64,000 nt of DNA from a virus (IMGVR_UViG_3300025674_000014); one strand, 5' to 3'. Numbered from the stretch's first letter, positions 1 through 52,405 are shown. Notes: generated by a model not told the origin, from the letters alone. A program made the numbers and translations.

Positions 1-585
1 ATCAAATACATAACCTACGAGGCTTTTATTGTTTCGTAGGTTTTCTGGTATATATGGTAACAAATTTTCGATCGAAAGGTTATCTAACAAGTCTCTGAAG
101 TTGCTAGCACTAAATGCTCCAGATTCATCACCAACCACATCGGCGACATCTATATTAACTGTTACACCGGCGGGTAAACCTTTTAATATACCTGAATATC
201 TAGCTTTATCATTTCCTTTACCACCAACACCAACTATAATTTGATCCCCTGGTAAAGCATCTTCTCTTACAAAGTCATAAACTTCACCTACTGCATTTTT
301 AGCTGTGGTTACATTAACACCTCTTAACCCCATTTCAGCAACATAACGTCTTAAAATATCAGCTGCTACATCAGCTGGTACATATTTACCACCCGGGGTA
401 TATCTTCTTGATTTAGGTGAAGGGTCGGTTACGATAACATTTACAATGCCATCTTGACCAACTTTATTTTTAAAGCTTTCAATTAACTTAAAATGACCAA
501 GGTGAGGTGGTTTAAATGAACCAGGAAAAAGAACTATCTTTCTACCTGTTTGCTCTTTGATGAAAAACCACTTAAATGCTGTCAT
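1..585 (-). CDS. HIGH-motif nucleotidyltransferase (cytidylyltransferase/NadD/CoaD-like), partial, runs off the window start
   Basis: Absent from the ORF track. Manual translation from ATG 585 gives MTAFKWFFIKEQTGRKIVLFPGSFKPPHLGH..., a (F/P)GSFxPxHxGH motif, and the frame stays open to base 1. TAAATA lies 6 nt upstream. Confidence 0.75.
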   Translation of the reverse strand, partial: MTAFKWFFIKEQTGRKIVLFPGSFKPPHLGHFKLIESFKNKVGQDGIVNVIVTDPSPKSRRYTPGGKYVPADVAADILRRYVAEMGLRGVNVTTAKNAVGEVYDFVREDALPGDQIIVGVGGKGNDKARYSGILKGLPAGVTVNIDVADVVGDESGAFSASNFRDLLDNLSIENLLPYIPENLRNNKSLVGYVFD

Positions 586-1867
586 TTTTATTATTTAATG
601 TTTTATACCATTCTATATAACATAGTTTAAAGTACTCTCTAAATTTTGTCAATAGATTTTCCATATAAGGTAACAAACAAACGTCTCCTTTATTATATGT
701 TGATGGATCTACATTACAAGCTTTTTCAAATATACTATAGTCTACTTTTATATCTAAATTATCAACAAAGTCTTTTATTTTATCTCCAAATAAAATATCA
801 AAAACAAAAAATTCAATATTATTAAATTTTTGAAGTAAAATAATGAAGAAATGGTATCTTATATTTTTTATTGTCTTGTCATAATCATTATGATCTAATT
901 CAAAATATCTTTCATACCCTTCCTCAACTTGTTTCTTAATTAACTCGTCATCTGCATTAGTAAAAATGTTATCTTGAACTTGTATAATTTGTCTACAACC
1001 AAACATATCAACATTGTTATGTTCAATAAGATAATTATTAGCTCTTGTTACTTTTATACTCGGTAACCCAACAACACCAAACTCGGCATCTCTAATAGTG
1101 TTAAATACCAAACCATCCATTGATATACCAATACCTTTTTCACCTAATACTAAATCAGTTAAACTTTCATTACCATAAACTACATTTTTATAATGCACTT
1201 TTGTACTATCTTTTATAGCTCCAGTTACATTGTTTCTAATACTTGTATATAAGTTACCGTACCATATTAATTTACCGGGTTCAAAATTTGTTTTAAGTCT
1301 TTGTTCCCAAAGTTCGTCTGGTGAAGTATCTTTTATACTATAAAGTTTATGGAATGATTCACACATGAACCCTTGTTTACAAAATCTAAAATTTTTAAAT
1401 CGAGTTTCATCTTCTTCTTTAGGTGGTGTGTTATAACCAATAGAATGATAACATATGTTTTTATAATCTAATTCATCAACATAGAACCAATCTGGTTTAT
1501 CATGTATTTCACCGTAATAGAAGTTTTGCTCTTTTTGAAGATAAACAATTAAACGATCATCATAGTAACCTAACTCTTTTATGTCGTTTTCTATTTTAAA
1601 CTTACATTGTTTATGGTAGTTATTAACTAAACATTCTGGTATAATTAAAATACCGGGTTTTTGTTCTAAAAGATCTTTTTTAAGTAAGTCCCAATCTATC
1701 TCTACTATTTTACCTCCAAGATCAGGTGATATGTAACCACCCATACTATTTTCCCATAAGAAAGGACCGTCTTCATTAAGGAAGTAAATAAGATCGTAAT
1801 TGAATATAGTACAATCTGGTATAGGAATATAATCACCTAAACGTTGGTGATATTTTAAGAAGGACAT
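572..1867 (-). CDS. Putative glycosyltransferase-like protein
   Basis: Track ORF is 572..1921. ATG 1867 (MSFLKY) is preferred because it follows the upstream stop and has TAAGTA 5 nt upstream. The segment GISMDGLVFNTIRDAEFGVVGLPSI resembles a GT-B C-terminal donor-binding motif; the call is weak. Confidence 0.35.
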   Translation of the reverse strand: MSFLKYHQRLGDYIPIPDCTIFNYDLIYFLNEDGPFLWENSMGGYISPDLGGKIVEIDWDLLKKDLLEQKPGILIIPECLVNNYHKQCKFKIENDIKELGYYDDRLIVYLQKEQNFYYGEIHDKPDWFYVDELDYKNICYHSIGYNTPPKEEDETRFKNFRFCKQGFMCESFHKLYSIKDTSPDELWEQRLKTNFEPGKLIWYGNLYTSIRNNVTGAIKDSTKVHYKNVVYGNESLTDLVLGEKGIGISMDGLVFNTIRDAEFGVVGLPSIKVTRANNYLIEHNNVDMFGCRQIIQVQDNIFTNADDELIKKQVEEGYERYFELDHNDYDKTIKNIRYHFFIILLQKFNNIEFFVFDILFGDKIKDFVDNLDIKVDYSIFEKACNVDPSTYNKGDVCLLPYMENLLTKFREYFKLCYIEWYKTLNNKNDSI

Positions 1868-1871
1868 AAAG

Positions 1872-3188
1872 TTACTTAACTGATTTGGCTTTAAATCCAG
1901 AACCACCTGGGTCCTTTTCACTTCTAGGGTTGGTAAAATATGATGAAAAACTCATACCACCGTTACCGAAGTTAGCAGCAGGAGCAGATTGATCTTCTTC
2001 ATCAGAAACTTTAGGTCTATTAGAAGCTAATTTACCACCCATACCACTAAGAATAAAATCGCCGGTGATTTTAATAGAATTAGGATTACCTAACTCATCT
2101 TTACCGTATACGGTATCGGTTAAAACTATACCTTCATGTTTGTCGGCATCACCATAATTATCAGTTTTATAATTTCGTAAAATTTCTTGACCTAATTCCT
2201 TAGTAATATGATAAGTTAAAGCCCCTGCAACTGCAGTATTAATATCTTCTTTTTTAAATACACTATCTAAAGGTGTACCATTAAGTACGGTAAGATAAAC
2301 ATCTTTACTGACAGCACCTCTATCTTTACCGTCTAAAGTTTTAACTCTAATTTTTTTAGGTATACCTTCCCCAACTTCTTTAATCCAAGTTTTAAGAGGT
2401 TTGATTACTCTTTCATTATTATCAAACTGTACTGTAAATGGTTTGTTTAAAACACTATCAAAATTAGGTACACCTTTTTTAGTAACATATATACCGGTAA
2501 TAACTTCAAACCCATACTGATTAGCTATTTTATTAACCTTTTCTCTTAAACTATTTAAAGCTTCATTATCATAGTTAATAACTCTAGATGTTTCCTTTAC
2601 ATTAGGTTTAGGTTTTAAACCAGGTCTTGTTAATTCACCTTTTCTATTTCGTTTTTCAACAAACTGATTAACGCTATGAAAAGCTATTATCTTTTTATCG
2701 CCATAATCTATAACATTTTCTTGACCGTCAATGTATTCGGTGTTTAAAAATTTTGTTGGGTCATTCCACATACCTAATTTTTCTAAATCATTTTTAATAA
2801 GTGGAATTGATTTATCCATAATAGTAAGAATTGTTTTACCTTTATCGATTAATCCATGACCCTCAGGAAAACGAGATGTAAGTCCATCTAATGTAATACC
2901 ATGTACATCTTCTACTTTTTGAGAACCTCTATCTAAAGCAAATTGTCTTTTAAATGTTTCATTACGTTCATCATTAACAACCTTTAAACTTAAATTAACA
3001 CCATCCAGTTTAACCGTAGCTGTACCTTTGTTAAGAATATCAACGCTGTTATATAACACATCTACTAAATCATCGACAGTGTTTACTTCAGGTAAGTCAA
3101 AAGGGTGATACATATGACCAGCAGCACCGCCTTCATTAAGAACGGTGTTGTTGTATGCTTCAAAAATTAGTTCTTGTTCAAATTTCAT
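1872..3188 (-). CDS. ATP-dependent RNA/DNA ligase-fold nucleotidyltransferase-like protein
   Basis: Motif I-like TVKLDGVN, motif III-like NTEYI, motif IV-like HEGIVL and motif V-like SIKIT. N-terminal GGAAGHMxHPFD is a signature I recognise from T4-like phage hypothetical proteins. Confidence 0.55.
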   Translation of the reverse strand: MKFEQELIFEAYNNTVLNEGGAAGHMYHPFDLPEVNTVDDLVDVLYNSVDILNKGTATVKLDGVNLSLKVVNDERNETFKRQFALDRGSQKVEDVHGITLDGLTSRFPEGHGLIDKGKTILTIMDKSIPLIKNDLEKLGMWNDPTKFLNTEYIDGQENVIDYGDKKIIAFHSVNQFVEKRNRKGELTRPGLKPKPNVKETSRVINYDNEALNSLREKVNKIANQYGFEVITGIYVTKKGVPNFDSVLNKPFTVQFDNNERVIKPLKTWIKEVGEGIPKKIRVKTLDGKDRGAVSKDVYLTVLNGTPLDSVFKKEDINTAVAGALTYHITKELGQEILRNYKTDNYGDADKHEGIVLTDTVYGKDELGNPNSIKITGDFILSGMGGKLASNRPKVSDEEDQSAPAANFGNGGMSFSSYFTNPRSEKDPGGSGFKAKSVK

Positions 3189-4774
3189 GATTTTAATGTA
3201 ATACTAGTACCATGGTGTCTTTTTATATCCATACCCATGTCTACATTTAAAATTCCCTTATTAATATAATCTAAAATTTTGTTAAAAGAGTTAACAAATA
3301 TTTCTTTTTTACCTTCCCCGTCAAATGAAAATACCAAAGCATCTAATTTATTATTACAAAAAAGTAAATAATTGAATTTTTCATGAGCATGATATTGACA
3401 AATTTGTAAAGAAGCTATTATAGCTTCCAAAATATTTTTATTTTTATGTCTTTGCATTTCATCTAATAATTCAGGTGTTAATATTTCATTTAAACCTTCT
3501 TTATAAGATTTTCTCTCTAAAACTGTTTCACTTTCACTACTTAGTTGTAAAAATGCATCAACAATGTGTTTTTTATCTAAATTCCAATCATGAAGAAAAA
3601 ATGCAGGCACTACATGATTAGTAGTGTCATTTCTGTCAATTTTTAATTTATTTTTTTTGGCTCTAAGAAATGATTGTACGCTACTTATAAAATTATTTTT
3701 TTTATTATTAACTTGTTTAGTTGTTTCTTTATTTAATTTATCAATTAAAGCAGGGATTTGTTCGTGTTCTATCTCGTCTTGTTTACCAAAAAGTAAATTG
3801 TTAAAAGATATTTCAAAATCATCATAATTAAATTCTTTATCATTTACTACTAAATTATGTAAATTTTTTACAAGATCGTATAACTCGTTTAACTTGTTTG
3901 AATAAAAATTAAATTCATTCTGATTTTTAGATTTTTTTTCTATATTATTTTTAGGTTGAATGTAATTTAATAAATCATTTCTTGATTTTACTAACTCTTG
4001 ATATTTTTCTCTAACTTCATGTGCAGTATGTACATTATTATTAGTTTTAGATAAAAGTTTTTGAATATATTCAATTACTTCTGCAGGCTTACCGGTTGCT
4101 CCAGCTCTACCTTTTTCACCTTTTACCTCAATAGTACCAAATCCAGGTACAAAAACATCACCTTTTTGACCTTTGTTTTTCAATGATTGTACTGCATCAG
4201 AAAAAAATGTAAAACAAATTTCGCCTTTACCTACCCCTACACCACTTACCGCTCCTTCTACATCATAAACAGCTTTTATAGTTTCTTTAACATTGGAAAA
4301 TGTATCATTAACTAATTTAGTACTAAAAGAATCATAAAGACTAAAAATATCACCACTACTAGCAGAAGATTGTAAATCTGAAGAAAATTTTGTAAGTTTA
4401 TTTTTGTTATCTTTTATTAATTTAAGACTAAAATTATTAACATCTGACGTATCTTCAATAGCATTAACGACAGGAATTAATATTTTTGAATTATAAGATG
4501 TATTTTCACCCTTTTTATTATTTGAACTCTTCCAACCACCTTCTTGTAAAATTTCATCAATGTAACGAAATGATCCACCGGATCTATTAGCAACCTGTCT
4601 TTGTAATTTTTTAGCTTCTTCATCAGGTAAATACCCAACTATTTTTTGTTCACCGTCATCTGTTTTAAAAATAATTTGAGTATCTTCACCTATTACTCTT
4701 TGTCTTTGTAATTTGGGTATCTTTTTAAAAGCGTTATCGCCGTATATATCTGCTAATGATCTATATTTGCTCAT
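3185..4774 (-). CDS. Large protein with a putative PD-(D/E)xK nuclease-like domain
   Basis: GVGKGE...KGDVFVPGFGTIEVKGEKGR fits an E...D...ExK arrangement. Confidence 0.45.
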   Translation of the reverse strand: MSKYRSLADIYGDNAFKKIPKLQRQRVIGEDTQIIFKTDDGEQKIVGYLPDEEAKKLQRQVANRSGGSFRYIDEILQEGGWKSSNNKKGENTSYNSKILIPVVNAIEDTSDVNNFSLKLIKDNKNKLTKFSSDLQSSASSGDIFSLYDSFSTKLVNDTFSNVKETIKAVYDVEGAVSGVGVGKGEICFTFFSDAVQSLKNKGQKGDVFVPGFGTIEVKGEKGRAGATGKPAEVIEYIQKLLSKTNNNVHTAHEVREKYQELVKSRNDLLNYIQPKNNIEKKSKNQNEFNFYSNKLNELYDLVKNLHNLVVNDKEFNYDDFEISFNNLLFGKQDEIEHEQIPALIDKLNKETTKQVNNKKNNFISSVQSFLRAKKNKLKIDRNDTTNHVVPAFFLHDWNLDKKHIVDAFLQLSSESETVLERKSYKEGLNEILTPELLDEMQRHKNKNILEAIIASLQICQYHAHEKFNYLLFCNNKLDALVFSFDGEGKKEIFVNSFNKILDYINKGILNVDMGMDIKRHHGTSITLKS

Positions 4775-4775
4775 A

Positions 4776-5141
4776 TTAATAATCTATATCAGGGTCGTCT
4801 GAATAAGAATTTATAAACTGTTTAAGTTTAGACAATATTTCACGACCATTTTCTTCATTAATTTCTTCATCTAAGATGGAAGGAGGAATTGTACCTTCGG
4901 TTGGTTCTAAAACTAATGCTTTACGAATAAGTCTGATCAATTCAACTTCACCTTCAGGTGTTAACTGCTTTACTTCGGGTTCTGGTTCGGTAATTGTTTC
5001 AGACTGTTGAGCAACCATTTCCTGCCCTGGCTGAGCAGGAGGTACAGACATTTGAGCGGTTGGATCAACAGGCTGTTCTTCAAGCATTTTATACTTGTTA
5101 CCAATTAAACTAAAAAATTTGCTGTGCGTTTTTATTTTCAT
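4776..5141 (-). CDS. Hypothetical late protein, possibly head-internal
   Basis: 121 aa ORF coupled to the upstream gene by an ATGA overlap. N-terminus reads F..L...MLEE, followed by a P/Q/E-rich linker. Confidence 0.6.
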   Translation of the reverse strand: MKIKTHSKFFSLIGNKYKMLEEQPVDPTAQMSVPPAQPGQEMVAQQSETITEPEPEVKQLTPEGEVELIRLIRKALVLEPTEGTIPPSILDEEINEENGREILSKLKQFINSYSDDPDIDY

Positions 5142-5641
5142 TGTAATTGAGCTTTAATTTGTTTATTCATATCTGAATATTTTTTAGCAGCAAGCCCTAC
5201 TAACCTATCTCTTTCTTTAACTGCTGCAGCCGCGGCACCTCTACTACCAGCACCTACACCAAGAAAAGCACCTGCTTTTTGTAATTTATTAGCTTTTTCA
5301 GCAGCCCTTTCAACATGATCATCTAAATCATAGTTGGATGTGTTAGCTTTTATTTTTGGATCTATACTACCTTTACCGGTAGGGTCAGACATAGAAATTT
5401 CATCTTCAGGAAATTCTTCTTTCTTGGGAGCAAGTAAACTATCTACTTTAAAAATTAATTTGTTAATAGCTTTAAATAGTTCTGGGTTATCTCTATGCTT
5501 TTCTACAGCAATTTTAACTACGTCATCATCATTAATTAAATCTCTGATAGATTCTAAAACATCTCTACCAATAGAAATTTGATCTTCGTCTTCTGAGACA
5601 TAGTTTTCAAACCCTTCTTTAATGGCTTGGTCGAACTTCAT
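5138..5641 (-). CDS. Hypothetical late protein, possibly head-internal
   Basis: 167 aa ORF starting MKFDQAIKEGFE, with TAAATA 5 nt upstream. Confidence 0.65.
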   Translation of the reverse strand: MKFDQAIKEGFENYVSEDEDQISIGRDVLESIRDLINDDDVVKIAVEKHRDNPELFKAINKLIFKVDSLLAPKKEEFPEDEISMSDPTGKGSIDPKIKANTSNYDLDDHVERAAEKANKLQKAGAFLGVGAGSRGAAAAAVKERDRLVGLAAKKYSDMNKQIKAQLQ

Positions 5642-5649
5642 ATCTATAT

Positions 5650-6210
5650 TTATTTAAAAGCAATCTGTTTAGTTTTTATATTGTTAAAATATTCCCCAGA
5701 TAAAAAGTTAAGTTCATTTACCTTTGCAAACTTTTTTACCTTTTCAAAAGTAAAATTTTCTACTTTAAACTTATTAACTGTATCTACTATTCTAATTAAC
5801 GTGCCTCTAGCTCTACCATCATCTATAGTTAACAAATGACTGAAGAACTCTAAACTCTTACTCGAAATAACAACTTTAATAGGTAAAATAGTCCTTATCC
5901 TTAACAACATCTTAGTTACTAATTTCAAATATACGGATTCATCTATATATTTCAACACTTCACTATCGTAAAATTGTGTATTATTAAAGTAAAGTAGTAA
6001 TTTATTAGTGGTTTTATAAGAATTTAAATAGTCTACCGTTTCTTTAATTGTAAAATGAAGTATTAATTTTCTACAATCCTTAGATAAATCGTAAAGTGAG
6101 TCAAGTAACTGAAGATTATGGAGTTCATCTATTAACCGCTGCTCAAAAGACAAATGTATCTGTTGATAATCAATTAATGTAACATTATACTCTGGCAGAT
6201 CTAATCTCAC
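5650..6210 (-). CDS. Hypothetical protein
   Basis: 186 aa ORF with a GTG start; no motif recognised. Confidence 0.55.
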   Translation of the reverse strand: MRLDLPEYNVTLIDYQQIHLSFEQRLIDELHNLQLLDSLYDLSKDCRKLILHFTIKETVDYLNSYKTTNKLLLYFNNTQFYDSEVLKYIDESVYLKLVTKMLLRIRTILPIKVVISSKSLEFFSHLLTIDDGRARGTLIRIVDTVNKFKVENFTFEKVKKFAKVNELNFLSGEYFNNIKTKQIAFK

Positions 6211-6240
6211 AATGTGATTTTAACGTGTCTGCAGACTAGT

Positions 6241-6657
6241 TCAACTCTTTTTTATCTTACCTAGTCTTAAGTTAATTATTCCGTTGTAGAATTTATCCTC
6301 GTTTAACAGTACGTCGTTATCAAACTGTAACTTTGCTTCATAATATGCTAATTCAGATTTAGAATTACAGAATCTAACTATTTCGAACATAAACTTATCT
6401 TTACCGTACTCAATTAGATCGTGATTAACCTTATCAGATGAAGATGTGTATGTTTTCCAATCTGTTTCTTTAACTACATGTCTTCGGCGTGATTTACCTT
6501 TAAGAGGAGGAAGTTTTGCTATTTTTTGAGCCTGTTTTTTACCGATATATTTTTTACCAGTAACAGTATTGGTTATAATGTAGATAAAGCCGAAAAAGTT
6601 TTCAGGTATATCTTCTTTTTTACCATTATAAGTCCAATGCCCTAAATTATCAACCAT
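6241..6657 (-). CDS. denA: GIY-YIG endonuclease, T4 endonuclease II (DenA)-like
   Basis: GFIYIITN...KKYIGKK and DWKTYTSSS, plus a C-terminal FYNGII. Start ATG 6657 (MVDNLG) is preferred over track start 6708. Confidence 0.65.
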   Translation of the reverse strand: MVDNLGHWTYNGKKEDIPENFFGFIYIITNTVTGKKYIGKKQAQKIAKLPPLKGKSRRRHVVKETDWKTYTSSSDKVNHDLIEYGKDKFMFEIVRFCNSKSELAYYEAKLQFDNDVLLNEDKFYNGIINLRLGKIKKS

Positions 6658-6859
6658 TTTTCTTCTTTTTCTTTTTACGCTTCTTTTTAGTATTACGTCG
6701 TTGAACACTTCCTAATACTTTAGGCATTCTATAATCACCTGGAGCGTAATTATCACCAGAAAATTGGGACGATGTCCATGTACCTAAAGCCCCACCGGGT
6801 CCAGCTACATTACCATCTTCGTCAAGCAACTTTAAAAATATGTTTTTAAACGTTGACAT
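6650..6859 (-). CDS. Small late protein with a basic C-terminus
   Basis: Starts MSTFKNIFLKLLDED and ends in a poly-Lys tail. An exact TATAAATA lies 6 nt upstream. Confidence 0.65.
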   Translation of the reverse strand: MSTFKNIFLKLLDEDGNVAGPGGALGTWTSSQFSGDNYAPGDYRMPKVLGSVQRRNTKKKRKKKKKKNG

Positions 6860-6880
6860 TAATAGTATTTATAGCATAAT
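6853..6880 (+). promoter_or_regulatory. Sigma70-like early promoter overlapping a divergent late promoter
   Basis: TTGACA 6853-58, 16 nt spacer, CATAAT 6875-80, ATG at 6889. A minus-strand TATAAATA (6866-73) sits inside the spacer. Confidence 0.6.
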
Positions 6881-6888
6881 CTATTTAG

Positions 6889-7287
6889 ATGTCTGAATTA
6901 ATAGATCAATATAATAATGAACTCAAAGAACATTTAGTGTTAGATGAGTTTAACATTAAAGATGCTCAAATGAAGTTACCAGGACGTAAACATCTTTGGG
7001 TTGGTCGTTTGATGAGACATAAACAGGAACTTAATAATTTAAAAACTAAAAAGAGTAAACTTATACAAAAGATAACTAAATCTATTCAAGAAAGTAGTGC
7101 TGTTAGATTATCAGTACCAGCTGCTGAAAAGGTAGCATGGAATACAGAACCAATTAAAGAACTTTCCTCACAAATTGGTGAACAAGAACTTATAATTGAG
7201 TTTTTAGAAAAGATTGAAAAAATATTTAGCGGTATGAGTTATGATATAAAAAATATTATTGAGATTCAAAAACTCGAAACAATGTAA
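6889..7287 (+). CDS. uvsY: UvsY-like recombination mediator
   Basis: 132 aa helical protein ending ...IFSGMSYDIKNIIEIQKLE, a UvsY-like C-terminus, and located near uvsW. Confidence 0.65.
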   Translation: MSELIDQYNNELKEHLVLDEFNIKDAQMKLPGRKHLWVGRLMRHKQELNNLKTKKSKLIQKITKSIQESSAVRLSVPAAEKVAWNTEPIKELSSQIGEQELIIEFLEKIEKIFSGMSYDIKNIIEIQKLETM

Positions 7288-7817
7288 TGAATAAACCTAA
7301 ACTAATTTTGTTTGATGTAGATGGTGTGTTAACAGACGGTAAAGCTACTTATGATAGTGTGAGTTATGTTGGATATAAACAATATAACTATAAAGATATA
7401 ACTGCATTAAGACGGTTTAAAAAGGAACTAGATATTGATGTTGCTCTTTTTACAGGCAGTAAGGAAATAAATCAAGCTTATGCTAAAAGTAAAAAGGTGA
7501 AATGTTATTATGTTAACCCTAATATAACTAACAAAGTAGAAAAACTAATTCACATTTGTAATTTAGATAGCATTAAACCTTCTCAAGTTGGTTATGTTGG
7601 TGATGATTACCAAGATTATGAAATTATGAAAGCAGTTGGGTTTAAATACTGTCCGTGTGATGCAATTTACGACATTAGAAATATTAAAGATGTAAATGTA
7701 TTACCTATACGTGGCGGTGAAGGTGTAGCTGACTGCGTTTTTTCAACAATTAAATACAAATTAAAGGATGATGAATATTGTAATTCCAATGGCAGGAAAA
7801 AGTTCTTCTTTTTCTAA
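7287..7817 (+). CDS. HAD phosphatase, KdsC/YrbI-like
   Basis: LFDVDGVLTDG, YVGDDYQD, CPCDA and GGEGV motifs. Confidence 0.8.
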   Translation: MNKPKLILFDVDGVLTDGKATYDSVSYVGYKQYNYKDITALRRFKKELDIDVALFTGSKEINQAYAKSKKVKCYYVNPNITNKVEKLIHICNLDSIKPSQVGYVGDDYQDYEIMKAVGFKYCPCDAIYDIRNIKDVNVLPIRGGEGVADCVFSTIKYKLKDDEYCNSNGRKKFFFF

Positions 7818-8496
7818 TGAAGGTATAGAAACCCCAAAACCTTTTATTGATATAAAAGGCAAAACAATGGTTCAGCGTGCTTATGAATCATTAAACTTAG
7901 ATCATGTTGCAAATAATGTTTATTTCATAGCATTGGAAGAACATAAAGATGAATATGATGTAGATAACGTTATAAAAAGTTTTTGTGAAAAGGCTAAAGT
8001 AGTTTACTTACCTAAAGTTACTTCTGGGCCTGCTGAAACACTTTATCAATTAAAAGGTATTATTCCTGATGATGAACCAATGTTACAAACTAATGTTGAT
8101 CAGATACTTGATTGGGATAGTAACAGGTTTGTTGAGTTTGTTAAAAATGATGAGTATGATGCAGTGTTAGTCACCATTAATGTAGTTGATCCACATTACA
8201 GTTATGCAAGATATAACCATAAACGCGAAGCTATTGACGTTATGGAAAAAACTATCATATCAAATGAAGGGTTAATTGGTACTCATTACTGGAAAAAAGC
8301 TAGTGATTATTTTAGATCGTTTGAAAAAGCAAAAGAACAAGGTTTAACTTATAATGATGAAATATATGTATCATTAACTTTTAATCCTCTTATTGAAGAA
8401 GGTAAAATTGTAAAAGACTTTAAACTTAAACAATCTGAAAAACAAAACGTAGTAGGTGATGTACCTAGTTTAAGCCTTTATGAAGACAGACTCTGA
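7768..8496 (+). CDS. Sugar-phosphate nucleotidyltransferase (NTP_transferase/GT-A fold)
   Basis: NIVIPMAG, PKPFIDIKGKTMV, TSGPAET and NVDQ motifs. Confidence 0.7.
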   Translation: MMNIVIPMAGKSSSFSNEGIETPKPFIDIKGKTMVQRAYESLNLDHVANNVYFIALEEHKDEYDVDNVIKSFCEKAKVVYLPKVTSGPAETLYQLKGIIPDDEPMLQTNVDQILDWDSNRFVEFVKNDEYDAVLVTINVVDPHYSYARYNHKREAIDVMEKTIISNEGLIGTHYWKKASDYFRSFEKAKEQGLTYNDEIYVSLTFNPLIEEGKIVKDFKLKQSEKQNVVGDVPSLSLYEDRL

Positions 8497-9289
8497 TTTA
8501 ACCATTTTAGTTTTATCATCAGACCACTATCAACCTATTATCAAGGTGTGGGAAAAGTATTTTGTTAAACATTGGTCTGATTGCCCTTATAAAGTTGTTT
8601 CTGTTTGTAACTTTGATCACTATGATAGTGAGGTTATTAACTTTGAAACTACTAACATTAAACCACAACCTGATGCATCTCATTTTAAAGGTATGCTTCT
8701 TCATGCTTTAGACAAAATAGATACCAAATATATTTTGTACATGTGTGAAGATCAAATACTAGTTAGAGATGCAGTGACTGATAATTTTACACAAGCTATT
8801 AGTTATATGGACAAAAACGATATAACTAAAATTAGATGTTTATCAATGCCTGAACCTGATACTGATTTAGATATTGAAGAAGGTATCATTAATAATGAAA
8901 ATTTTGGTTTTATCTCACTTGATAATGAGTATAGAAATTCACTTCAAGCTGCTATCTGGAATAAAGAACGTTTTGTTGAGTTGCTTAAAACACGAGAAGA
9001 TGTATATTCTGGGTGGGTGCTTGAAACAGATGAAAACTTCAGAGAGTATTCTAAGAAATGGAAATATGTTGCATGTAAACACGGTAAAGGTGGTACATTT
9101 TTAGATAGGTATCCTGGTCAAGGTGATTCACCTTTGCTTAATTACGTGGAGTTAGTAAGGTGGGGTAAATTTGATAGGTTATATATTGAATATTTTCGCG
9201 ACATATTTAAAAAAGACAATTTCACCGTCGATGTTTCCGAATATGATAAATTCGGTGCAGGATTAACACCAGAAGAATTACCTCAGTAG
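8480..9289 (+). CDS. Putative GT-A glycosyltransferase
   Basis: TILVLSSDHY..., YILYMCEDQ (DxD-like) and SLQAAIWNK. Confidence 0.5.
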   Translation: MKTDSDLTILVLSSDHYQPIIKVWEKYFVKHWSDCPYKVVSVCNFDHYDSEVINFETTNIKPQPDASHFKGMLLHALDKIDTKYILYMCEDQILVRDAVTDNFTQAISYMDKNDITKIRCLSMPEPDTDLDIEEGIINNENFGFISLDNEYRNSLQAAIWNKERFVELLKTREDVYSGWVLETDENFREYSKKWKYVACKHGKGGTFLDRYPGQGDSPLLNYVELVRWGKFDRLYIEYFRDIFKKDNFTVDVSEYDKFGAGLTPEELPQ

Positions 9290-9290
9290 C

Positions 9291-9318
9291 TTGACTGTTT
9301 AAGTATATATATTATTAT
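9291..9318 (+). promoter_or_regulatory. Sigma70-like promoter, leaderless geometry
   Basis: TTGACT-N16-TATTAT, with ATG 7 nt downstream. Confidence 0.6.
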
Positions 9319-9325
9319 ATCTTAA

Positions 9326-10768
9326 ATGGCTAAGTTTATTTACGATAATAAAAAACGTAAAGCTACAATCTTTTCAGATCAGTTAGATCTAATTAGAGAA
9401 CATTTTTCTTACCCTAACGAAGGTGCAGTTTTTGCAAGAAGGCGTGGTGCATGGTTTATGCCCACGCGTTCCTATATTATAACCCCTGCTGGTAAGTATG
9501 ATGTGGGTATGACTTTAGATATAATCAAATATATTAAAAGAGAATTACCTAATGAACCTATTATAATAGACGAATCAATAAAAGATGTTATTAAACCTTC
9601 AATTAATGCAGAGAAGGTATCCCTAGCTTTAGAGTTACGTGATTATCAAGGTGAAATTGTTGATGAGTGCGTTAAGTTTGGTAGAGGGGTTGTAGTGTTG
9701 GCTACTGCTGGTGGCAAAACCTTAACTATGGCTAATTTGCTTGAACGTATCTATCAAACATCACAGAATAAAGAAACTTGGAAAGCTCTTATTATCGTAC
9801 CTGACTTAGGATTGGTAAATCAAACGTTTGCTGACTTTGAAAACTATAAAGTTAATTTTACCCACGGTAAATGGACCGGTAATAACCCGGTTAATATAGC
9901 TGACAATGTTATTATAGCTAATATGGGTATATTACAAAGTGATAAAAGTGATATTGACTTTATTAACTATGTAGATGTACTTGTTATTGATGAAGTACAT
10001 AAAATAAGAGCTAAAAATAAGATTAATAAAATAGTAACCAAAATTAACACTAGTAATAAATTTGGGTTTACAGGTACCTTACCCGATAATGATGCTGATA
10101 TGTGGAATATATTCGGTAAAATCGGGCCTGTTATATATGAAAAAGGTAGTTATGAGTTACGATTAGAAAATTATGTTAGTAATGCTTTGGTACAAGTAGT
10201 TAAACTTCATTACAAAACTAAACCTCGCTACTCTACTGAAATAAATGACCCCGGTGAACGGTATAGGCAAGAGTTTGAGTTTCTATTTACTAATAGTTTT
10301 AGGAACAATGTTATTAAAAAGTTATCTACAGGTGTAAAAAAGAACACTCTTATACTTGTAGACTTTATTAGACATGGGGAAGAGTTATATAATGTATTAA
10401 GTCAAGACGAAAGTAAAAAAGTATATTTTATTCAAGGAGACGTCGATGTTGAAGAACGTGATAAAATTAAAAAACTTATTGAAAGTAACGATAACATTAT
10501 TTGTATTGCTATTAGTAAAATATTCAGTACTGGGATTAGTATCAATAACCTTCATTACATTATTTTTGCTTCAGGAGGTAAAGCAAAAGTTAAAATATTA
10601 CAGTCAATTGGTCGTGGGTTACGTCTTCACAAAAACAAAAATAAATTAGTTATTATAGATATTGCCGATCAGTTAAGGTATAGTGAACAACATTCTGAAA
10701 AACGAATCGATTTATATCAGTCAGAAAATATTCAAACAAAAATCGTTGATTTTTACGAGAACAGTTGA
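9326..10768 (+). CDS. uvsW: UvsW SF2 DNA helicase
   Basis: LRDYQ, ATAGGKT, IDEVH, GFTGT and QSIGRGLR motifs. Confidence 0.92.
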   Translation: MAKFIYDNKKRKATIFSDQLDLIREHFSYPNEGAVFARRRGAWFMPTRSYIITPAGKYDVGMTLDIIKYIKRELPNEPIIIDESIKDVIKPSINAEKVSLALELRDYQGEIVDECVKFGRGVVVLATAGGKTLTMANLLERIYQTSQNKETWKALIIVPDLGLVNQTFADFENYKVNFTHGKWTGNNPVNIADNVIIANMGILQSDKSDIDFINYVDVLVIDEVHKIRAKNKINKIVTKINTSNKFGFTGTLPDNDADMWNIFGKIGPVIYEKGSYELRLENYVSNALVQVVKLHYKTKPRYSTEINDPGERYRQEFEFLFTNSFRNNVIKKLSTGVKKNTLILVDFIRHGEELYNVLSQDESKKVYFIQGDVDVEERDKIKKLIESNDNIICIAISKIFSTGISINNLHYIIFASGGKAKVKILQSIGRGLRLHKNKNKLVIIDIADQLRYSEQHSEKRIDLYQSENIQTKIVDFYENS

Positions 10769-23788: not shown

Positions 23789-24586
23789 ATGAGTGAAAGA
23801 AAACTACGTAGAGCTGTAATGCCATTTAGTGGTGGTATGGATAGTGCTGTTATGCTTAACATGGCTCAAACAGCACATGATGAATTATATTGTATTACTT
23901 TTGATTACGGTCAACGTCATAAGCGTGAGATCGAATGTGCTAAAACTCAAATTGAACATAATGAAGTAAGGTCATTTAGTCACTCGTTTGAGTTTCATCG
24001 TATCTATCATAAGATTATCGATGTGTCATTTATTAAGGAACTTGCAACTACTAGTTCACTTACTAATACTGATATTGATAACCCTGATGTTAAAGATATG
24101 GTTGGTGAAGCTCAACCAGCTAGTTATGTACCTTTTAGGAACCAGTTGTTTCTAAGTATTGCATGTGCTTATGCTGAGTCTATTGGTGCTGATACCGTAT
24201 ATCATGGTGCAACCCAAGTTGATAGTCTTGCTGGTTACTGGGATGGTAGTCCTGAATTCCAAGATAGTTTTAATAAACTGATTAGTCTTAATAGACAAAA
24301 TCAAATTGTAGTTAAATGTCCATTGATTAACCTTAGCAAGAAAGACATTATTCTATCTGGTATTAGTAACAGGGTAGATTTTGGTGAAACATATACGTGT
24401 TATAGTGGTGATGAAATTGCTGATGCAACTACACCAAGTAGTGCACTACGTATTAAGGGTTTTTGTGATGCTGGTTATATTGACCCTCAACCATATAAGC
24501 AAGATCTTACATCATTATGGGAAGAGCATGACTGTAAGCCATGCCCTACTGGGTTCTTTTTACAAAAAGGAGGTACTAGAGGTTAA
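23789..24586 (+). CDS. queC: QueC-family PP-loop ATPase with a degenerate zinc site
   Basis: SGGMDS, FDYGQRH, YVPFRN and TYTCY present; the expected CxxCxxC is replaced by ADATTPSSALR. Confidence 0.85.
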   Translation: MSERKLRRAVMPFSGGMDSAVMLNMAQTAHDELYCITFDYGQRHKREIECAKTQIEHNEVRSFSHSFEFHRIYHKIIDVSFIKELATTSSLTNTDIDNPDVKDMVGEAQPASYVPFRNQLFLSIACAYAESIGADTVYHGATQVDSLAGYWDGSPEFQDSFNKLISLNRQNQIVVKCPLINLSKKDIILSGISNRVDFGETYTCYSGDEIADATTPSSALRIKGFCDAGYIDPQPYKQDLTSLWEEHDCKPCPTGFFLQKGGTRG

Positions 24587-25167
24587 TAGTCCTCTAAATC
24601 GTCGTCCTGATATTCGGACATATCATCATCAGGGCGATCATCAATTTCATCATACTCCGTGTCCATAGAAGCGGTGGGATCAACATAATCAGCAGTAGTT
24701 GGTTCCACCGCTTCGCCACCTTTAATGTTAATTTCGTCTAAGTAACCATCAGCTATCATTCCACCTAAAAGTACTTCTGCTTCCTTTTTATCCATTCCTG
24801 TTTTAGTAAGGAACTCCATTATGTCTTTAGCTTTTGCTGAATCGTCTGCTTCAACATATCTTACAACATCACGTTGAGCTGTGTTTAATCTTTCTTCGTA
24901 CGATTTATCAGCAACTTTAAATTCTCTATTACCAAGTTTAACCTTATTACTGGTTTTTTCTTTTCGTTGTCTTGTTGCTCTTGATCTTACACCAGAACCT
25001 TTACCTTTTAACCTCATCATCATTTCATAATAAGACTCTTTTCTTTCTTCACCGGTGTCAGGATCTACGACAGTTTTACGTTCTCTATCTTTGTATTGTT
25101 TTTTACGCCCTTCTTCAATGGACTGCATATACGATTCAAATAGAAATTGATTTTCTCTGTCTTTCAT
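24583..25167 (-). CDS. Hypothetical late protein, possibly head-internal
   Basis: Starts MKDRENQFLFESY, has an acidic C-terminus and TAAATA 6 nt upstream. Confidence 0.65.
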   Translation of the reverse strand: MKDRENQFLFESYMQSIEEGRKKQYKDRERKTVVDPDTGEERKESYYEMMMRLKGKGSGVRSRATRQRKEKTSNKVKLGNREFKVADKSYEERLNTAQRDVVRYVEADDSAKAKDIMEFLTKTGMDKKEAEVLLGGMIADGYLDEINIKGGEAVEPTTADYVDPTASMDTEYDEIDDRPDDDMSEYQDDDLEDY

Positions 25168-37371: not shown

Positions 37372-38412
37372 ATGATATTACCTGAGGCATACATCGTACA
37401 AAAATTTTATCAATACGCTGGACGGCCGAAGTATAATAGACTTGCAAAGACTTACCAAGGAGGATGTCCTGTGTGTAGAGAGGGTAAGTCTTGGGGTAAA
37501 AAACGTCGGTTGTTCTATGTTGTAAAAGATAATTTCGTTCATTGTCACAATTGTGGTTGGCATTCTAATCCTATGAACTGGATTGTTGAAGTGTCGAGCA
37601 TGACTGTAGGTGAAATATACAAGGAAGCAGAAGAGTATGATCTGTTACCTAAAGATCTTTCTGCAGATGTTGATATAAGTGCGGTTGTAAAAAAAGCTTT
37701 ACATAGATCATTACCAGAAGATAGTATTAATCTATTTGATGAGGGTCAAATAAAGTATTATAACTCAAATGCATTAGTACAAACTGCTCTTAACTACATA
37801 AAAAAACGTAAATTAGATAAGGCTATTAATAGACCTAAAGCCCTTTACTTCTCACTTAAAGATAAAGTACATAAGAATAGACTTATCATACCTTTCTACG
37901 ATGTCTCCGGTAAGATCATCTTTTATCAAAGTAGAACTATCATTGAGAACTACAAAGTTAAGCTACCTAAGTATCTAGGCAAGATCGACAGTGATAGAAG
38001 TTTGTTTAATATTAATAAAATTAAAGAAGACATTGATCAGATTTATATTATTGAAGGTCCAATTGATGCTTTCTTTGTTCAAAATGGTGTAGCTGTTGCA
38101 GGTATCAATGAAAGTAGTGATAATCTTTATACTAAACTACAAAATACTCAGTTAATGAAGTTTCCGTTTCATGAAAGAGTTATTGCACTAGACTCTCAAT
38201 GGCAAGATAAAGCTTCACTTAAGAAAACGAAAACGTTATTAGAAAAAGGCCATAAAGTATTCATTTGGCCTAAGAAGTTTGGTATTAAGTTTAAAGATTT
38301 TAATGAAATGTGCACAACTTTAGACATAGAAAAAGTCCCTAATAACTTTTTAATGCAAAATACATTCAAAGGATTACCGGGACTTGTAAAATTATCTCAA
38401 ATTATATATTAA
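37372..38412 (+). CDS. gp61: DNA primase gp61
   Basis: CPVC...HCHNCG zinc finger, RLIIPF, IEGPIDA and DSQWQD TOPRIM motifs. Confidence 0.9.
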   Translation: MILPEAYIVQKFYQYAGRPKYNRLAKTYQGGCPVCREGKSWGKKRRLFYVVKDNFVHCHNCGWHSNPMNWIVEVSSMTVGEIYKEAEEYDLLPKDLSADVDISAVVKKALHRSLPEDSINLFDEGQIKYYNSNALVQTALNYIKKRKLDKAINRPKALYFSLKDKVHKNRLIIPFYDVSGKIIFYQSRTIIENYKVKLPKYLGKIDSDRSLFNINKIKEDIDQIYIIEGPIDAFFVQNGVAVAGINESSDNLYTKLQNTQLMKFPFHERVIALDSQWQDKASLKKTKTLLEKGHKVFIWPKKFGIKFKDFNEMCTTLDIEKVPNNFLMQNTFKGLPGLVKLSQIIY

Positions 38413-38804
38413 ACATCTGCACTATGCATATAACCTTTAAGATTCTCAATAAGAGAACTTAAATCCATTGCAACTCTAGCAATCTTTTTGGTTTCAGCAC
38501 TAGCAATCTTATTAAAAAGGGTATCGCAGCTAGCTTGATGTAATTTAGACTGTACAGAATCACCTTCACTATTAAGATAGTTAGTAAATTCTTCCATTTT
38601 AGATATCCAACTAGCCAACTCCTGGGCTTGAGCAGCATTGTTAGCCTTTACCATGTCTTCAGGTGACTGTTGAGGGGCATCGACATTGAAATCAGCTGCA
38701 TCAGTTTCAGGATCAAGCTGTGTTTCCATAGCCTCTGTATCTGTAATCTCTACTGTTTCGTCTTGCTCAAGTAATGTAATAAAACGTTTACTAAAAAAGC
38801 TCAT
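38409..38804 (-). CDS. Hypothetical late protein, possibly head-internal
   Basis: Starts MSFFSKRFITLLEQ, with TAAATA 5 nt upstream. Confidence 0.65.
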   Translation of the reverse strand: MSFFSKRFITLLEQDETVEITDTEAMETQLDPETDAADFNVDAPQQSPEDMVKANNAAQAQELASWISKMEEFTNYLNSEGDSVQSKLHQASCDTLFNKIASAETKKIARVAMDLSSLIENLKGYMHSADV

Positions 38805-38836
38805 ACATTTATTTAATCTCTCCTATAAATAATAAT

Positions 38837-39241
38837 ATGGCAAGTAATAAATTACTTTTAGAAGATCAAATACAAATGTACAATAAGTGGGTTCGTGGTA
38901 TTGCTACCAGAGAGCAAAAGCCTTCTCACGTTACGGTAGGTGATTTATTACAAGCTAGTGGTACTAACGATAGAAATAAAGCTCCCTTAGAGCTACCTTA
39001 CCCTATGACGCATATCATTGAAGATATGGGTGCTTTATTCTTAGCAGCAGATAATATTGAAGCTAAAGCAAGACAAACTAAAGAAAACCCGTTAGTTACA
39101 GAGAGTGAAGACGCTACTGAACATTTAAATAACTTTATTAAACGTTGTGGTAAGATTAAGCATATTTTAAACAATATGACTAAAGATTTAGATGTAATTG
39201 TTCAGCGTAAACCATTCGAGAGTGGTAATGCAGAGTCCTAA
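38837..39241 (+). CDS. Hypothetical late protein
   Basis: Starts MASNKLLLEDQ, with TATAAATA 5 nt upstream. Confidence 0.65.
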   Translation: MASNKLLLEDQIQMYNKWVRGIATREQKPSHVTVGDLLQASGTNDRNKAPLELPYPMTHIIEDMGALFLAADNIEAKARQTKENPLVTESEDATEHLNNFIKRCGKIKHILNNMTKDLDVIVQRKPFESGNAES

Positions 39242-40290: not shown

Positions 40291-40594
40291 TACAAGTTTT
40301 CAAGCCCCGGGTGGAGTTAGTTTAAGACCTCGAATAGGCGGTCCAACTAGATTTGGTATGCAAACTGAATCTGCTCCATTAACTAACTCTAAATTCGAAC
40401 CCGGTGAGATATATACTATAGTTTATATCAAAAAAGTTGAGGACGGTGTTGAGTATACGTTTAAGTCCGGTAAGGGTAAAGTAGTTACTGAAGTTTTTGC
40501 AAGTTGTAATGATGCTGATAAACTTATAGCTAATATGAGAGGGGAAACTTTACCGGACTACGATTCGTTTTATAATAATAGTTCACGAGGTTAA
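40274..40594 (+). CDS. Hypothetical protein
   Basis: 106 aa ORF. Confidence 0.55.
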   Translation: MHYILNTSFQAPGGVSLRPRIGGPTRFGMQTESAPLTNSKFEPGEIYTIVYIKKVEDGVEYTFKSGKGKVVTEVFASCNDADKLIANMRGETLPDYDSFYNNSSRG

Positions 40595-41439
40595 GGTCCA
40601 AACGGCCCATCTTCTGGAGCTTCAGTGTTACCGTAACCTCCATATACATTATCATAGTCAAACCCTGAATAATCAAATATTGCTTTAGATAACTCTTCAA
40701 GATCCCCATCATAACTCTTAGGTGAAGATCTATCTTGCATTCCCCCATCAAGTACACCTGAGAACTTATCATCATAAACCTGATCACTTCCACCTTCAGC
40801 ACTAAGACCAGGTTCAAAGCTATAATCGTAACGTTTAGCTTTTACCATCCAAACATAATGACCTGCTAATGGGTTTATTCTTGCAACATCTTCGTCTAAT
40901 CGTTCTGTGATTTCAAATTTTTTACCTGTACGAGGATAAGGTCTATCATCTCCAAATTCTGTTAACTCAATTATATCACCAGCTTTGGGTTCTTGTAAAT
41001 ATCCAAATGTTTGATAGAATGCACTAATGTGTATATAACCTGTAAACTCGTCGTCGGAATCAAAACCATACTTTTGAAGTATTACTGCATTTTCTTGTAA
41101 CTCAAGTAGTACAATTATTTGTTTTGGATCTTTAAACACCTTAGTAGGCTCTTCACCGTAAATGTTACCGGGTCCAGCTTCAGGTATACCATCTGCAGAT
41201 AAAGTATTGTAGGGGTTTTGCCAATATGTAACTCTTTGACCATATAAACATATCTGTTCAAACCACCAATTACTAATAACAAGCCTTTCACATAAGGTAT
41301 TATCTTTATCAGTAAATCTAAAACAGGGGTTGCATGTTTTCGGTTTAGGGTAAATTGAACCACTGCTATTTGGGGTAGGAACACCAGGTAAAAACCCTGG
41401 CATAATTTGATTAGTACCTGTATACCATGCAATAGACAT
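40591..41439 (-). CDS. gp14: Neck protein gp14-like (head-tail adaptor)
   Basis: EQICLYGQRVTY, IYGEEPTKVF, KYGFDSDDEFT and EPKAGDIIEL motifs. Confidence 0.75.
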   Translation of the reverse strand: MSIAWYTGTNQIMPGFLPGVPTPNSSGSIYPKPKTCNPCFRFTDKDNTLCERLVISNWWFEQICLYGQRVTYWQNPYNTLSADGIPEAGPGNIYGEEPTKVFKDPKQIIVLLELQENAVILQKYGFDSDDEFTGYIHISAFYQTFGYLQEPKAGDIIELTEFGDDRPYPRTGKKFEITERLDEDVARINPLAGHYVWMVKAKRYDYSFEPGLSAEGGSDQVYDDKFSGVLDGGMQDRSSPKSYDGDLEELSKAIFDYSGFDYDNVYGGYGNTEAPEDGPFGP

Positions 41440-42473
41440 TATCTTAGATAACTCCTTTTATTCTTGTTAGTTCTCATTAGGTAATACCTACCGTTAGGTT
41501 TTACCCCTAAAGCTACACCAGACTTTTTTAAACCTTTTGGACGCCTTATATCCCTAACACCGAAATGTTTTGATAATTTGTATGCATCTTGAGGACTAAT
41601 ATAAACAAATTTTGGTCCTCCGGGTTTTTGCATTACTTTAAAACTATTTGGTAAGTCTAAATTCGTTTTTAGGTATTCTGGTACAGTAGTAGCATGCTTT
41701 CTCATACCAGGGTCTCTTACAACAGCATGTTGTTGTCTATGATTTACTTTATTAGAATTAAAAAATGACTCTGAGTACATTTCATCATAATTATGATTAA
41801 TTAAGTTGTATAACTTATCAATATACTCTGTATTGCGTAAAAATTTAAAAGTTAAATTACCGACTGAAAATTCCCCCATACCTTTGAGACCTTCTTGTCT
41901 CATTTTCTTTATTTTCTGAAATAATTTTCTACCATAATTGTATAATGTTTCAGATTTACCTGAGTCATCTTTATACTTGTTAGTTAACTCTTCTAACTTG
42001 TCAATTTGAACCTTTATATCTTCAAATTTCTTTTTAACGTCTTCGTCTTTTATACTTGGTGGGTTATATTCTGGTTTTTTGACCCATTTACCCTCTTGTA
42101 AAGAATACAAGCCAGACGATACATGAGGTTCTTTTGTGTCTTGAAAATACATTTCGACTTCATGACCCTTTAACTTAATATCATGTTTGGTATTCCATAT
42201 AAAACGGATACCATCTAAAGCTGCTTTAACTAAATCTGTATCTTCGTCAATTTTGTTAAAGTCTAATAAGATGTGAACGTCTAAATCACTTTTTGGGGTG
42301 TAGTTGTAGTTAGCTAAGCTACCAGTTAATTGTATATCGTCAATTTTAGGAAGTTTTATAGGTACATTAGCTAAGAAATCCTTAGTAATATCAATAAGCT
42401 TTTTACGTAAAGCAGGAATCATTTTATCCTTTACGTAAAATTTAGGGTTTAAAGTTTCGTTGTAAAACTTCAC
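41439..42473 (-). CDS. DNA polymerase beta-superfamily nucleotidyltransferase
   Basis: LTGSLANYNYTPKSDLDVH (GS..DxD) and HEVEMY. GTG start with TAAATA 5 nt upstream. Confidence 0.75.
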   Translation of the reverse strand: MKFYNETLNPKFYVKDKMIPALRKKLIDITKDFLANVPIKLPKIDDIQLTGSLANYNYTPKSDLDVHILLDFNKIDEDTDLVKAALDGIRFIWNTKHDIKLKGHEVEMYFQDTKEPHVSSGLYSLQEGKWVKKPEYNPPSIKDEDVKKKFEDIKVQIDKLEELTNKYKDDSGKSETLYNYGRKLFQKIKKMRQEGLKGMGEFSVGNLTFKFLRNTEYIDKLYNLINHNYDEMYSESFFNSNKVNHRQQHAVVRDPGMRKHATTVPEYLKTNLDLPNSFKVMQKPGGPKFVYISPQDAYKLSKHFGVRDIRRPKGLKKSGVALGVKPNGRYYLMRTNKNKRSYLR

Positions 42474-42487
42474 ATTAATATTTAAGC

Positions 42488-42524
42488 AAAAAAAATGCCT
42501 ACCAAGCGCTTGGCAGGCATTTTT
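42488..42524 (-). terminator. Rho-independent terminator
   Basis: On the minus strand: ATGCCT-G-CCAA-GCGC-TTGG-T-AGGCAT followed by T7. The G.U pair forms only on the minus strand. Confidence 0.85.
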
Positions 42525-42545
42525 GAACTACTCTATTTTGTTCGT

Positions 42546-46906: not shown

Positions 46907-46965
46907 CATATTTATTAAAAAGGTGCATTTTAGACTTTTATATCTAAAAATGCATAAATATCGAT

Positions 46966-49517: not shown

Positions 49518-49550
49518 ATCAAAAGATAACTAGTAAGCATAAATAATGAT

Positions 49551-52397: not shown

Positions 52398-52405
52398 ATA
52401 TTTGC

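Follow-up and report, generated by a model that had tools for sequence, protein, structure and literature searches.

A predicted late operon of enzyme-like proteins with capsid-targeting-like leaders in an uncultured T4-like phage

Are the enzyme-like proteins of a late-type phage operon ordinary cytoplasmic enzymes, or are they cargo of the virion head? The question is raised by one end of a 64,000-nucleotide (nt) stretch of DNA from a virus (IMGVR_UViG_3300025674_000014; the whole stretch is called the window below). The minus strand is densely coded from 6859 down to 1, and the six genes from 5641 to 1 abut or overlap, as the initial annotation had described; they encode proteins of 167, 121, 529, 438 and 431 amino acids (aa) and a nucleotidyltransferase (NTase). 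We favour, as somewhat the more probable explanation on the strength of sequence comparison, that the enzymes of this operon are packaged in the head by way of T4-type capsid-targeting leaders. The locus would then be a late operon of an uncultured aquatic T4-like myovirus, most of whose products would be made as leader-bearing precursors. The leader would take each protein into the prohead core, a gp21-type prohead protease would cut it off after [L/I/V]-x-E, and the mature proteins would remain inside the filled head until they leave it together with the DNA at infection. Candidates for this cargo are a divergent lysine-nucleotidylating enzyme of the RNA/DNA-ligase fold, a HIGH-motif NTase that appears to be the obligate partner of the ligase fold (the two form one polypeptide in most relatives), a fast-evolving protein resembling restriction endonucleases, and three small proteins that are probably non-enzymatic. 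Most likely, their job would be nucleic-acid end chemistry or nucleotide-cofactor chemistry at the onset of infection, directed against host defences; the particular uses suggested in the initial annotation (repair, adenylylation, cofactor rescue) are conjectural. The mechanism proposed is the known T4 pathway of capsid-targeting sequence (CTS) and gp21; new are the cargo, namely an uncharacterised ligase-fold/HIGH-NTase pair and a nuclease-like protein, and a rule for the cleavage junction.

The operon is laid out as follows, a slash marking the putative cleavage site of a leader:

5647..5653, minus strand: late start signal ATAAATA, 5 nt upstream of the ATG (5641) of the first of the six operon genes
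5138..5641, minus strand: 167-aa protein, leader MKFDQAIKE/G and a fast-diverging body
4776..5141, minus strand: 121-aa protein, acidic and Pro-rich, with a conserved leader ending L-x-E/Q
3185..4774, minus strand: 529-aa hypervariable protein, 30-residue leader ending VIGE/D, PD-(D/E)xK-like core, helical insert at about 247-465
1872..3188, minus strand: 438-aa predicted ligase-fold nucleotidyltransferase, leader 1-19, putative mature start GGAAGHM, motifs I, IV and V, disordered tail 387-438
572..1867, minus strand: 431-aa protein that belongs to no known family and lacks a leader, its gene inserted between the ligase-fold and NTase genes in some lineages only
1..585, minus strand: HIGH-motif NTase, first 195 of 203 aa within the window, leader MTAFKWFFIKE/Q, HxGH at H28-H31, SASNFR with R164

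The NTase gene is cut by the edge of the window. Its full length of 203 aa is found in the closely related locus L002, where the next gene lies on the opposite strand and the operon thus ends at the NTase. Judged from its relatives, including P0129, the 431-aa gene starts at M19 (position 1867) and not at the listed GTG at 1921. The other loci compared were L004, L005, L006 and L007, together with L009 (Microcystis phage Mel-JY01, PP395634) and L014 (T4, 108636-114440).

The operon had been annotated as lying behind late-type promoters, and an ATAAATA box is indeed present at its head, although this is a single signal, with none inside the operon. The box is 2.6-fold rarer in the window than expected (20 copies against 52.6), and 9 of the 20 stand 5-6 nt before the ATG of an open reading frame (ORF) of at least 69 aa, among them the sheath (46966), tube (49551), 167-aa and 69-aa genes. 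As the geometry of box and ATG is that of the sheath and tube genes, the operon carries the start signal of bona fide late genes. A gap of 5-6 nt is too short for a Shine-Dalgarno sequence, and this phage may make late mRNAs with little or no leader. In the T4 record, 20-30 nt instead separate the late box from a downstream AGGA- or GAGG-type site, so that the spacer of T4 late genes contains a Shine-Dalgarno sequence, whereas here the box abuts the ATG. The nine box-ATG pairs are 38825-38837, 43211-43205, 44547-44535, 46954-46966, 49539-49551, 52394-52406, 60821-60834, 5653-5641 and 6872-6859.

Leaders and their cleavage junction

Short N-terminal leaders are found on six of the nine minus-strand genes between 1 and 6859, that is, on five operon proteins and on a 69-aa protein encoded just upstream, and they are kept in L002, L004, L006 and L007. 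The initial annotation had seen Glu-ending leaders on three enzymes; the leaders are real and conserved in orthologues, but occur on six proteins. In L004, L006 and L007 the orthologues with kept leaders are only 25-60% identical. The leader of the ligase-fold protein, MKFEQELIFE/A...VLNE/GG, has two candidate sites (IFE/A and LNE/G), and those of the 121-aa and 529-aa proteins, ending in L-x-E or I-x-E, are longer and conserved. The leader of the 69-aa protein, with its L-x-E or I-x-E site, is kept in L006 and L007. The SegE-type endonuclease and the 186-aa protein encoded upstream of the operon have no leader.

The leaders in the T4 record are MKTFKEF in internal protein I (IPI), MKTYQEFIAE/A in IPII and IPIII, MELITELFDE/D in Alt and MLKEQLIAE/A in gp22, and both the 10-residue T4 CTS and the L/I-x-E rule of gp21 have been published (PMC8442874, PMC9026906). 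The proteins discussed here resemble IPI, IPII, IPIII and Alt in having a short M-K-x-aromatic...(I/L)-x-E leader and in being encoded by genes of late type. The internal proteins of T-even phages are diverse anti-restriction proteins with only the CTS in common (PMC3012670); here, too, the leader is kept while the cargo diverges or is replaced, and Alt provides a precedent for enzyme cargo. The differences lie in the putative cargo itself, which in T4 consists of small basic inhibitors and here would consist of proteins of 200-530 aa (the ligase-fold enzyme, the HIGH NTase and the nuclease-like protein), and in the leaders, some of which are longer with two candidate sites.

In three of the five cases compared, conservation of the leader exceeded that of the body. 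Between the window and L002, 26 of the 30 leader residues of the 529-aa protein are identical against 36% of the body; for the ligase-fold protein the comparison with L004 gives 16 of 19 against 47%, and for the 167-aa protein the comparisons with L004 and L007 give 7-8 of 9 against 21-22%. The junction between leader and body points the same way. About 76 of 122 members of the ligase family start exactly at M-GGAAGHM, and 45 relatives carry an extension of 5-35 residues before this point; in these, the residue immediately before GG (P1) is Glu in 43 of 45, and P3 is Leu, Val or Ile in all 45. In Mel-JY01, an internal IIAE/GG site lies between the NTase and ligase domains. The leader/GG junction falls within a low-confidence, probably disordered stretch of the ligase-fold model. 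A start methionine is removed before Gly, and Met removal at M-GG or cleavage after Glu would therefore yield the same mature N-terminus. A gp21-type protease (PF03420) was found in all three near-complete genomes with such genes that were tested, namely the L005 contig, Mel-JY01 and S-CREM2.

The last of these offers an experimental parallel. Gp154 of Synechococcus phage S-CREM2, a 'cytidylyltransferase (virion protein)', was detected in purified virions by mass spectrometry (PMC10665884), and this HIGH NTase, from a T4-like phage, begins with a leader of 10 residues that resembles those of T4, MKNFSSFLTE/A. Its gene is neither fused nor adjacent to a ligase-fold gene in the S-CREM2 record. 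With the T4 internal-protein leaders, the conservation in orthologues, the junction and the S-CREM2 proteome taken together, the proposal of T4-type capsid-targeting propeptides is well supported by comparison, except for the so-called 'GT-like' member of the set, the 431-aa protein, which is untagged.

Several observations weigh against packaging and against the assumed activity of its cargo. The [LIV]-x-E motif is short and common, and a generic leader pattern was not significantly more frequent among the 78 ORFs of the window than in shuffled controls (7 against 4.6 +/- 2.2), so the case for the leaders rests on comparison and not on counting. The NTase leader is conserved no better than the NTase body, and the 431-aa gene lies untagged inside the operon. 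Over half of the ligase-NTase family is leaderless, and packaging would thus be optional for the enzyme pair, not required. Support from virion mass spectrometry comes from the analogue gp154 and not from the present phage, and gp154 aligns with the window's NTase only in the HIGH region, which makes it an analogue and not an orthologue. As to activity, the 438-aa protein has a single motif V lysine and may not be a true ligase.

The leaderless starts at M-GG and the absence of enrichment are also what would be expected if these were ordinary late enzymes that stay unpackaged in the cytoplasm. The likeness of the N-termini would then stem from constraints on the first codons (AT-rich codons for Lys, Phe and Asn, short or absent mRNA leaders, translational coupling) or from a shared helix with another role, and Glu-Gly-Gly would be the edge of a folded domain. 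An ATG 5 nt from the ATAAATA box could well place the first codons under constraint at the nucleotide level, and T4 RNA ligases are not known to reside in the head. However, the box precedes the first gene of the operon only, yet internal, coupled genes bear leaders as well. Leaders of 5 to 35 residues all end in [LVI]-x-E at GG, with the exception of the two in which Glu is replaced, and the equivalent site between the two domains of Mel-JY01 is distant from any start codon. The 529-aa leader has been kept despite a replaced body, and a tagged HIGH NTase is present in S-CREM2 virions. We consider the cytoplasmic alternative somewhat unlikely for these reasons, and packaging in the head remains the preferred explanation.

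The ligase fold and its HIGH-motif partner

The 438-aa protein had been proposed to have a ligase fold, and its predicted structure bears this out. It has no match in Pfam, PHROG, NCBIfam or the sequences of the Protein Data Bank (PDB). An AF2 model built on an alignment of 67 relatives reached a pLDDT of 83.6 and a pTM of 0.79, with residues 1-22 and 387-438 disordered. Foldseek placed T4 Rnl2 at rank 1 (E 1e-3), and all 50 of the 50 Foldseek matches that were re-examined are ligases. In an exhaustive structural alignment against 48,161 PDB representatives, ranks 1-30 were occupied entirely by RNA ligases, DNA ligases or capping enzymes, the best match being T4 Rnl1 (Z 7.6, root-mean-square deviation (rmsd) 5.5, 214 aligned residues). 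Across the 67 relatives, K60, D62 and G63 of motif I (KxDG), G353 and V355 of motif IV (EGIV) and K373 of motif V are invariant, and E352 of motif IV and E151, the residue tested for motif III, are at least 90% conserved. The second motif V position holds an invariant Thr (K-I-T-G), where ligases carry a second Lys.

At the level of sequence, the family stands apart. A family profile gave only chance matches to PDB sequences, with no ligase among them, and hhalign comparison with T4 Rnl2, Rnl1 and DNA ligase did not reach significance (probability at most 1%); the sole local profile match to T4 Rnl2 pairs K60 with the motif I lysine of Rnl2, but is not significant. PF09414 is not matched by the window's protein, and 2 of 26 relatives reach only E 0.047. 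The nearest fold cluster in the ESM Atlas is viral (TM 0.77/0.81 over 368 residues, rmsd 2.8) and has DUF6267 on 26% of its members. The likeness to DUF6267 (PF19782) is thus strong in fold, yet none of 26 family members (the window's protein and 25 relatives) matches the Pfam model at E up to 1. Compared with the ATP-dependent RNA ligases (T4 Rnl1, T4 Rnl2, Naegleria Rnl and the ligase domain of fungal Trl1), the protein shares the nucleotidyltransferase fold (Z 6.2-7.9), motif I KxDG, motif IV EGxV and the motif V lysine. It differs in its lack of a significant sequence match, its large inserts, an N-terminal element of its own (GGAAGHMxHPFD), the Thr in place of the second motif V lysine, and the absence of an OB or other known C-terminal domain. 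By model and motifs, the protein is a predicted nucleotidyltransferase with a ligase fold, and its family is uncharacterised and distinct from Rnl1 and Rnl2. Its tail (residues 387-438; 1872-2030, minus strand), of the form DEEDQSAP...NPRS.KDPGG, is conserved in stand-alone forms of the protein yet disordered, and is not found in fused forms.

The annotation of a HIGH NTase held as well, since the protein scores above the cut-offs of both PF01467 (28.7 bits, cut-off 21) and TIGR00125 (34.8 bits, cut-off 27.7). Its HxGH and SxxxxR motifs show no variation at G30, H31 and R164 and almost none at H28. It has these features in common with the HIGH NTases NadD/NMNAT, CoaD/PPAT and the FMNAT domain of RibF, but it lies far below the equivalog cut-offs of NadD/NMNAT, CoaD and RibF (best 14-20 bits against cut-offs of 103-315), bears a leader and belongs to a family that is usually fused to a ligase fold. 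Among relatives of solved structure, the RibF FMNAT domain and PPAT come closest (E ~1e-3). A tblastn search with the NTase found no match among cultured phages, and the same search with the fused form found only an NMNAT-annotated gene of Flavobacterium phages.

The two enzymes are linked throughout the family. Most of the 193 relatives of the 438-aa protein are fusions of about 650 aa with a C-terminal PF01467 domain, and the cultured Microcystis phage Mel-JY01 encodes a fusion in the reverse order, with the NTase first (hhalign probability 97%). Atlas clusters of 781-971 aa likewise join the ligase fold to PF01467, and other near clusters combine DUF6267 with PF01467. The genes are directly adjacent in L006 and are parted in the window by a single inserted gene (431 aa). 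Fusion in both orders, the adjacency in L006 and the one-gene separation here argue for the ligase fold and the NTase forming one functional unit. The 431-aa gene is absent in L006, where the NTase gene directly follows the ligase-fold gene. The Mel-JY01 fusion (L009, 5317-7236) is annotated just as 'cytidylyltransferase like protein', and only a few genes separate it from the large terminase gene downstream.

A role of the pair in building the virion would be compatible with late expression. The ligase fold could act like T4 gp63 (Rnl1), which also promotes tail-fibre attachment, while the NTase would make an activated CDP- or NDP-linked donor to decorate virion proteins. The T4 record describes Rnl1, the best structural match, as 'RNA ligase and tail fiber protein attachment catalyst', and a Sulfotransfer_2 gene follows the NTase gene on the same strand in L006 and L007. 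However, the catalytic residues of both enzymes are strictly kept, the fusion partner of the NTase across the family is a ligase fold and not a sugar enzyme, and the NTase matches no equivalog of sugar- or glycerol-phosphate cytidylyltransferases. Head-type leaders with protease sites would also be unexpected on tail-assembly enzymes or on cytoplasmic sugar enzymes, and a virion-building role seems quite improbable. Very improbable indeed is that the proteins are head-internal but catalytically dead relics serving as DNA-condensing or scaffold-like filling: the missing second motif V lysine, the lack of sequence matches to characterised ligase families and the non-enzymatic look of the 69-, 121- and 167-aa products would suit such a role, but KxDG, EGIV, HxGH and SxxxxR are kept (E352 and H28 nearly invariant) across relatives down to 25-40% identity, and if catalysis played no part, there would be little reason for two nucleotidyltransferases to be fused in either order.

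If the two enzymes are packaged, active cargo, as we prefer to read them, they might be the parts of a single machine that works in two steps and that many uncultured aquatic phages supply ready-made along with their DNA. Regeneration of a cofactor (for example NAD+ from NMN and ATP) would fall to the NTase, and the ligase fold would use this cofactor to seal or tag broken RNA or DNA ends, undoing host defences that cleave tRNA or DNA or deplete NAD before the phage genes are expressed; the nuclease-like neighbour would be a matching injected effector. This combined reading is speculative, and we regard it as distinctly unlikely to hold in full. The packaged proteins of T4 are the classic example of phage products at work before phage genes are read, and the cargo known there (IPI-III and Alt) is small. 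Should abundant aquatic phages carry large nucleotide-handling enzymes in their heads, infection would be chemically far richer in its first seconds than assumed, and a widespread, uncharacterised ligase-fold/HIGH-NTase pair would gain a testable setting. The leader, combined with the junction rule ([LVI]-x-E before GG), could serve as a simple sequence-based predictor of head cargo. In a literature search, neither capsid-targeting tags in marine phages nor a fusion of ligase and HIGH NTase was the subject of any paper found.

The hypervariable cassette and the 431-aa gene

The third candidate enzyme, the 529-aa protein, had been described as nuclease-like. The motif behind this description is real: E185, D206, E216 and K218 are invariant in nine relatives, within the elements GKGE (182-185), GD (205-206) and ExKG (216-219). 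The PD-(D/E)xK fold, on the other hand, is only suggested. In the model (pLDDT 74), D206 precedes the strand 207-209, and E216 and K218 lie within the strand 213-218, forming a beta hairpin as in PD-(D/E)xK enzymes. With the full-length protein, the helical insert dominated the fold searches (PDB by Foldseek and wide alignment, AFDB clusters), which returned helical bundles or unnamed proteins. When residues 95-250 were compared with the Atlas, the named clusters closest to them all proved to be type II restriction enzymes (Eco47II 0.85, SmaI 0.83, EcoO109I 0.82), and weak shape matches were obtained to DpnI and PDDEXK_16; both sets of matches are below proof level. The same residues also matched a viral 875-aa Atlas cluster (TM 0.59) with an RNA_ligase domain on 75% of its members. 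Relatives of the 529-aa protein form only seven clusters, to which a second profile search added none. A nuclease-type core is probable.

The 529-aa gene lies in a hypervariable cassette (window 3185-5641, L002 7544-9998). The SegE, 186-aa, ligase-fold, 431-aa and NTase genes are 95-100% identical between the window and L002, whereas within the cassette the identity is 39% for the 529-aa, 76% for the 167-aa and 87% for the 121-aa protein. The body of the 529-aa protein has been replaced behind a fixed leader, as at the internal protein loci of T-even phages (PMC3012670), which fits an arms race. PADLOC gave zero matches for any gene.

The suggestion that the 431-aa gene is 'GT-like' is unsupported. 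The protein matches no family in Pfam, PHROGs, NCBIfam or PADLOC, its Atlas features are uninformative, and only six relatives were found among 1.8 billion representatives. Untagged as it is, it does not evidently belong to a packaged kit.

Neighbouring genes and the phage

Upstream of the operon, the minus strand carries the following features:

6866..6873, minus strand: late start signal TATAAATA (ATAAATA box 6866-6872), 6 nt before the ATG of the 69-aa gene
6650..6859, minus strand: 69-aa protein with leader MSTFKNIFLKLLDE/D, a conserved core rich in Gly and a poly-Lys tail; it may be a small basic internal protein
6241..6657, minus strand: SegE-type GIY-YIG endonuclease (PF19835, E 4e-34), no leader, syntenic across all related loci
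5650..6210, minus strand: 186-aa protein with no assigned function, GTG start, no leader

The SegE gene is 70-77% identical in the diverged L004, L006 and L007, above most of its neighbours, which is unusual for a homing endonuclease; its best PHROG match is phrog_447, annotated 'NAD synthetase'. In T4 (108636-114440), rnlB, 24.2, 24.3, hoc and inh lie in this order on one strand, followed by segE and uvsW. Positions 1-10768 of the window hold the ligase-fold operon and SegE, and then a UvsW-like helicase (9326-10768), an order that recalls T4. Given this T4-like order around SegE and UvsW, the ligase-fold gene may occupy the ancestral position of rnlB.

Similar N-termini occur elsewhere in the window. 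A lone minus-strand gene of 194 aa (24583-25167), amid plus-strand replication genes, encodes a protein that starts MKDRENQFLFESYMQSIEE/G, like the leader of the ligase-fold protein, and continues with a very basic stretch. A 131-aa protein (38409-38804, minus strand) starts MSFFSKRFITLLE/Q, a leader of the same type. A second late-signal operon (40591-44535, minus strand) encodes adjacent proteins of 323 and 341 aa, both starting MNRKRDL. Next come a protein of 344 aa, in which a nucleotidyltransferase domain of the Pol-beta type was recognised (PF01909, E 3e-4), and one of 282 aa. This operon may be another tagged set.

The window, with a G+C content of about 30%, encodes a T4-type set of proteins comprising a gp46-like SMC ATPase, a family B polymerase (gp43 type), UvsX, a gp41 helicase, the large terminase (gp17), the tail sheath (gp18) and NrdA. 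The large terminase has at most about 37% identity to that of any cultured phage, which makes the phage a distant, uncultured T4-like myovirus. Used as a DNA query, window positions 1-6000 gave zero matches to cultured phages, and G001, the nearest record found, does not contain the ligase-fold gene. Positions 1-7000 are present in many aquatic and seawater metagenome runs, at least 12 of which share half or more of the sampled words. Contigs from RNA libraries (metatranscriptomes) overlap operon genes; they are short and unstranded and carry no timing or transcript ends. In two different studies, such contigs break at 5142 into the same foreign sequence, and this shared break suggests strains that carry another gene instead of the 167-aa gene.

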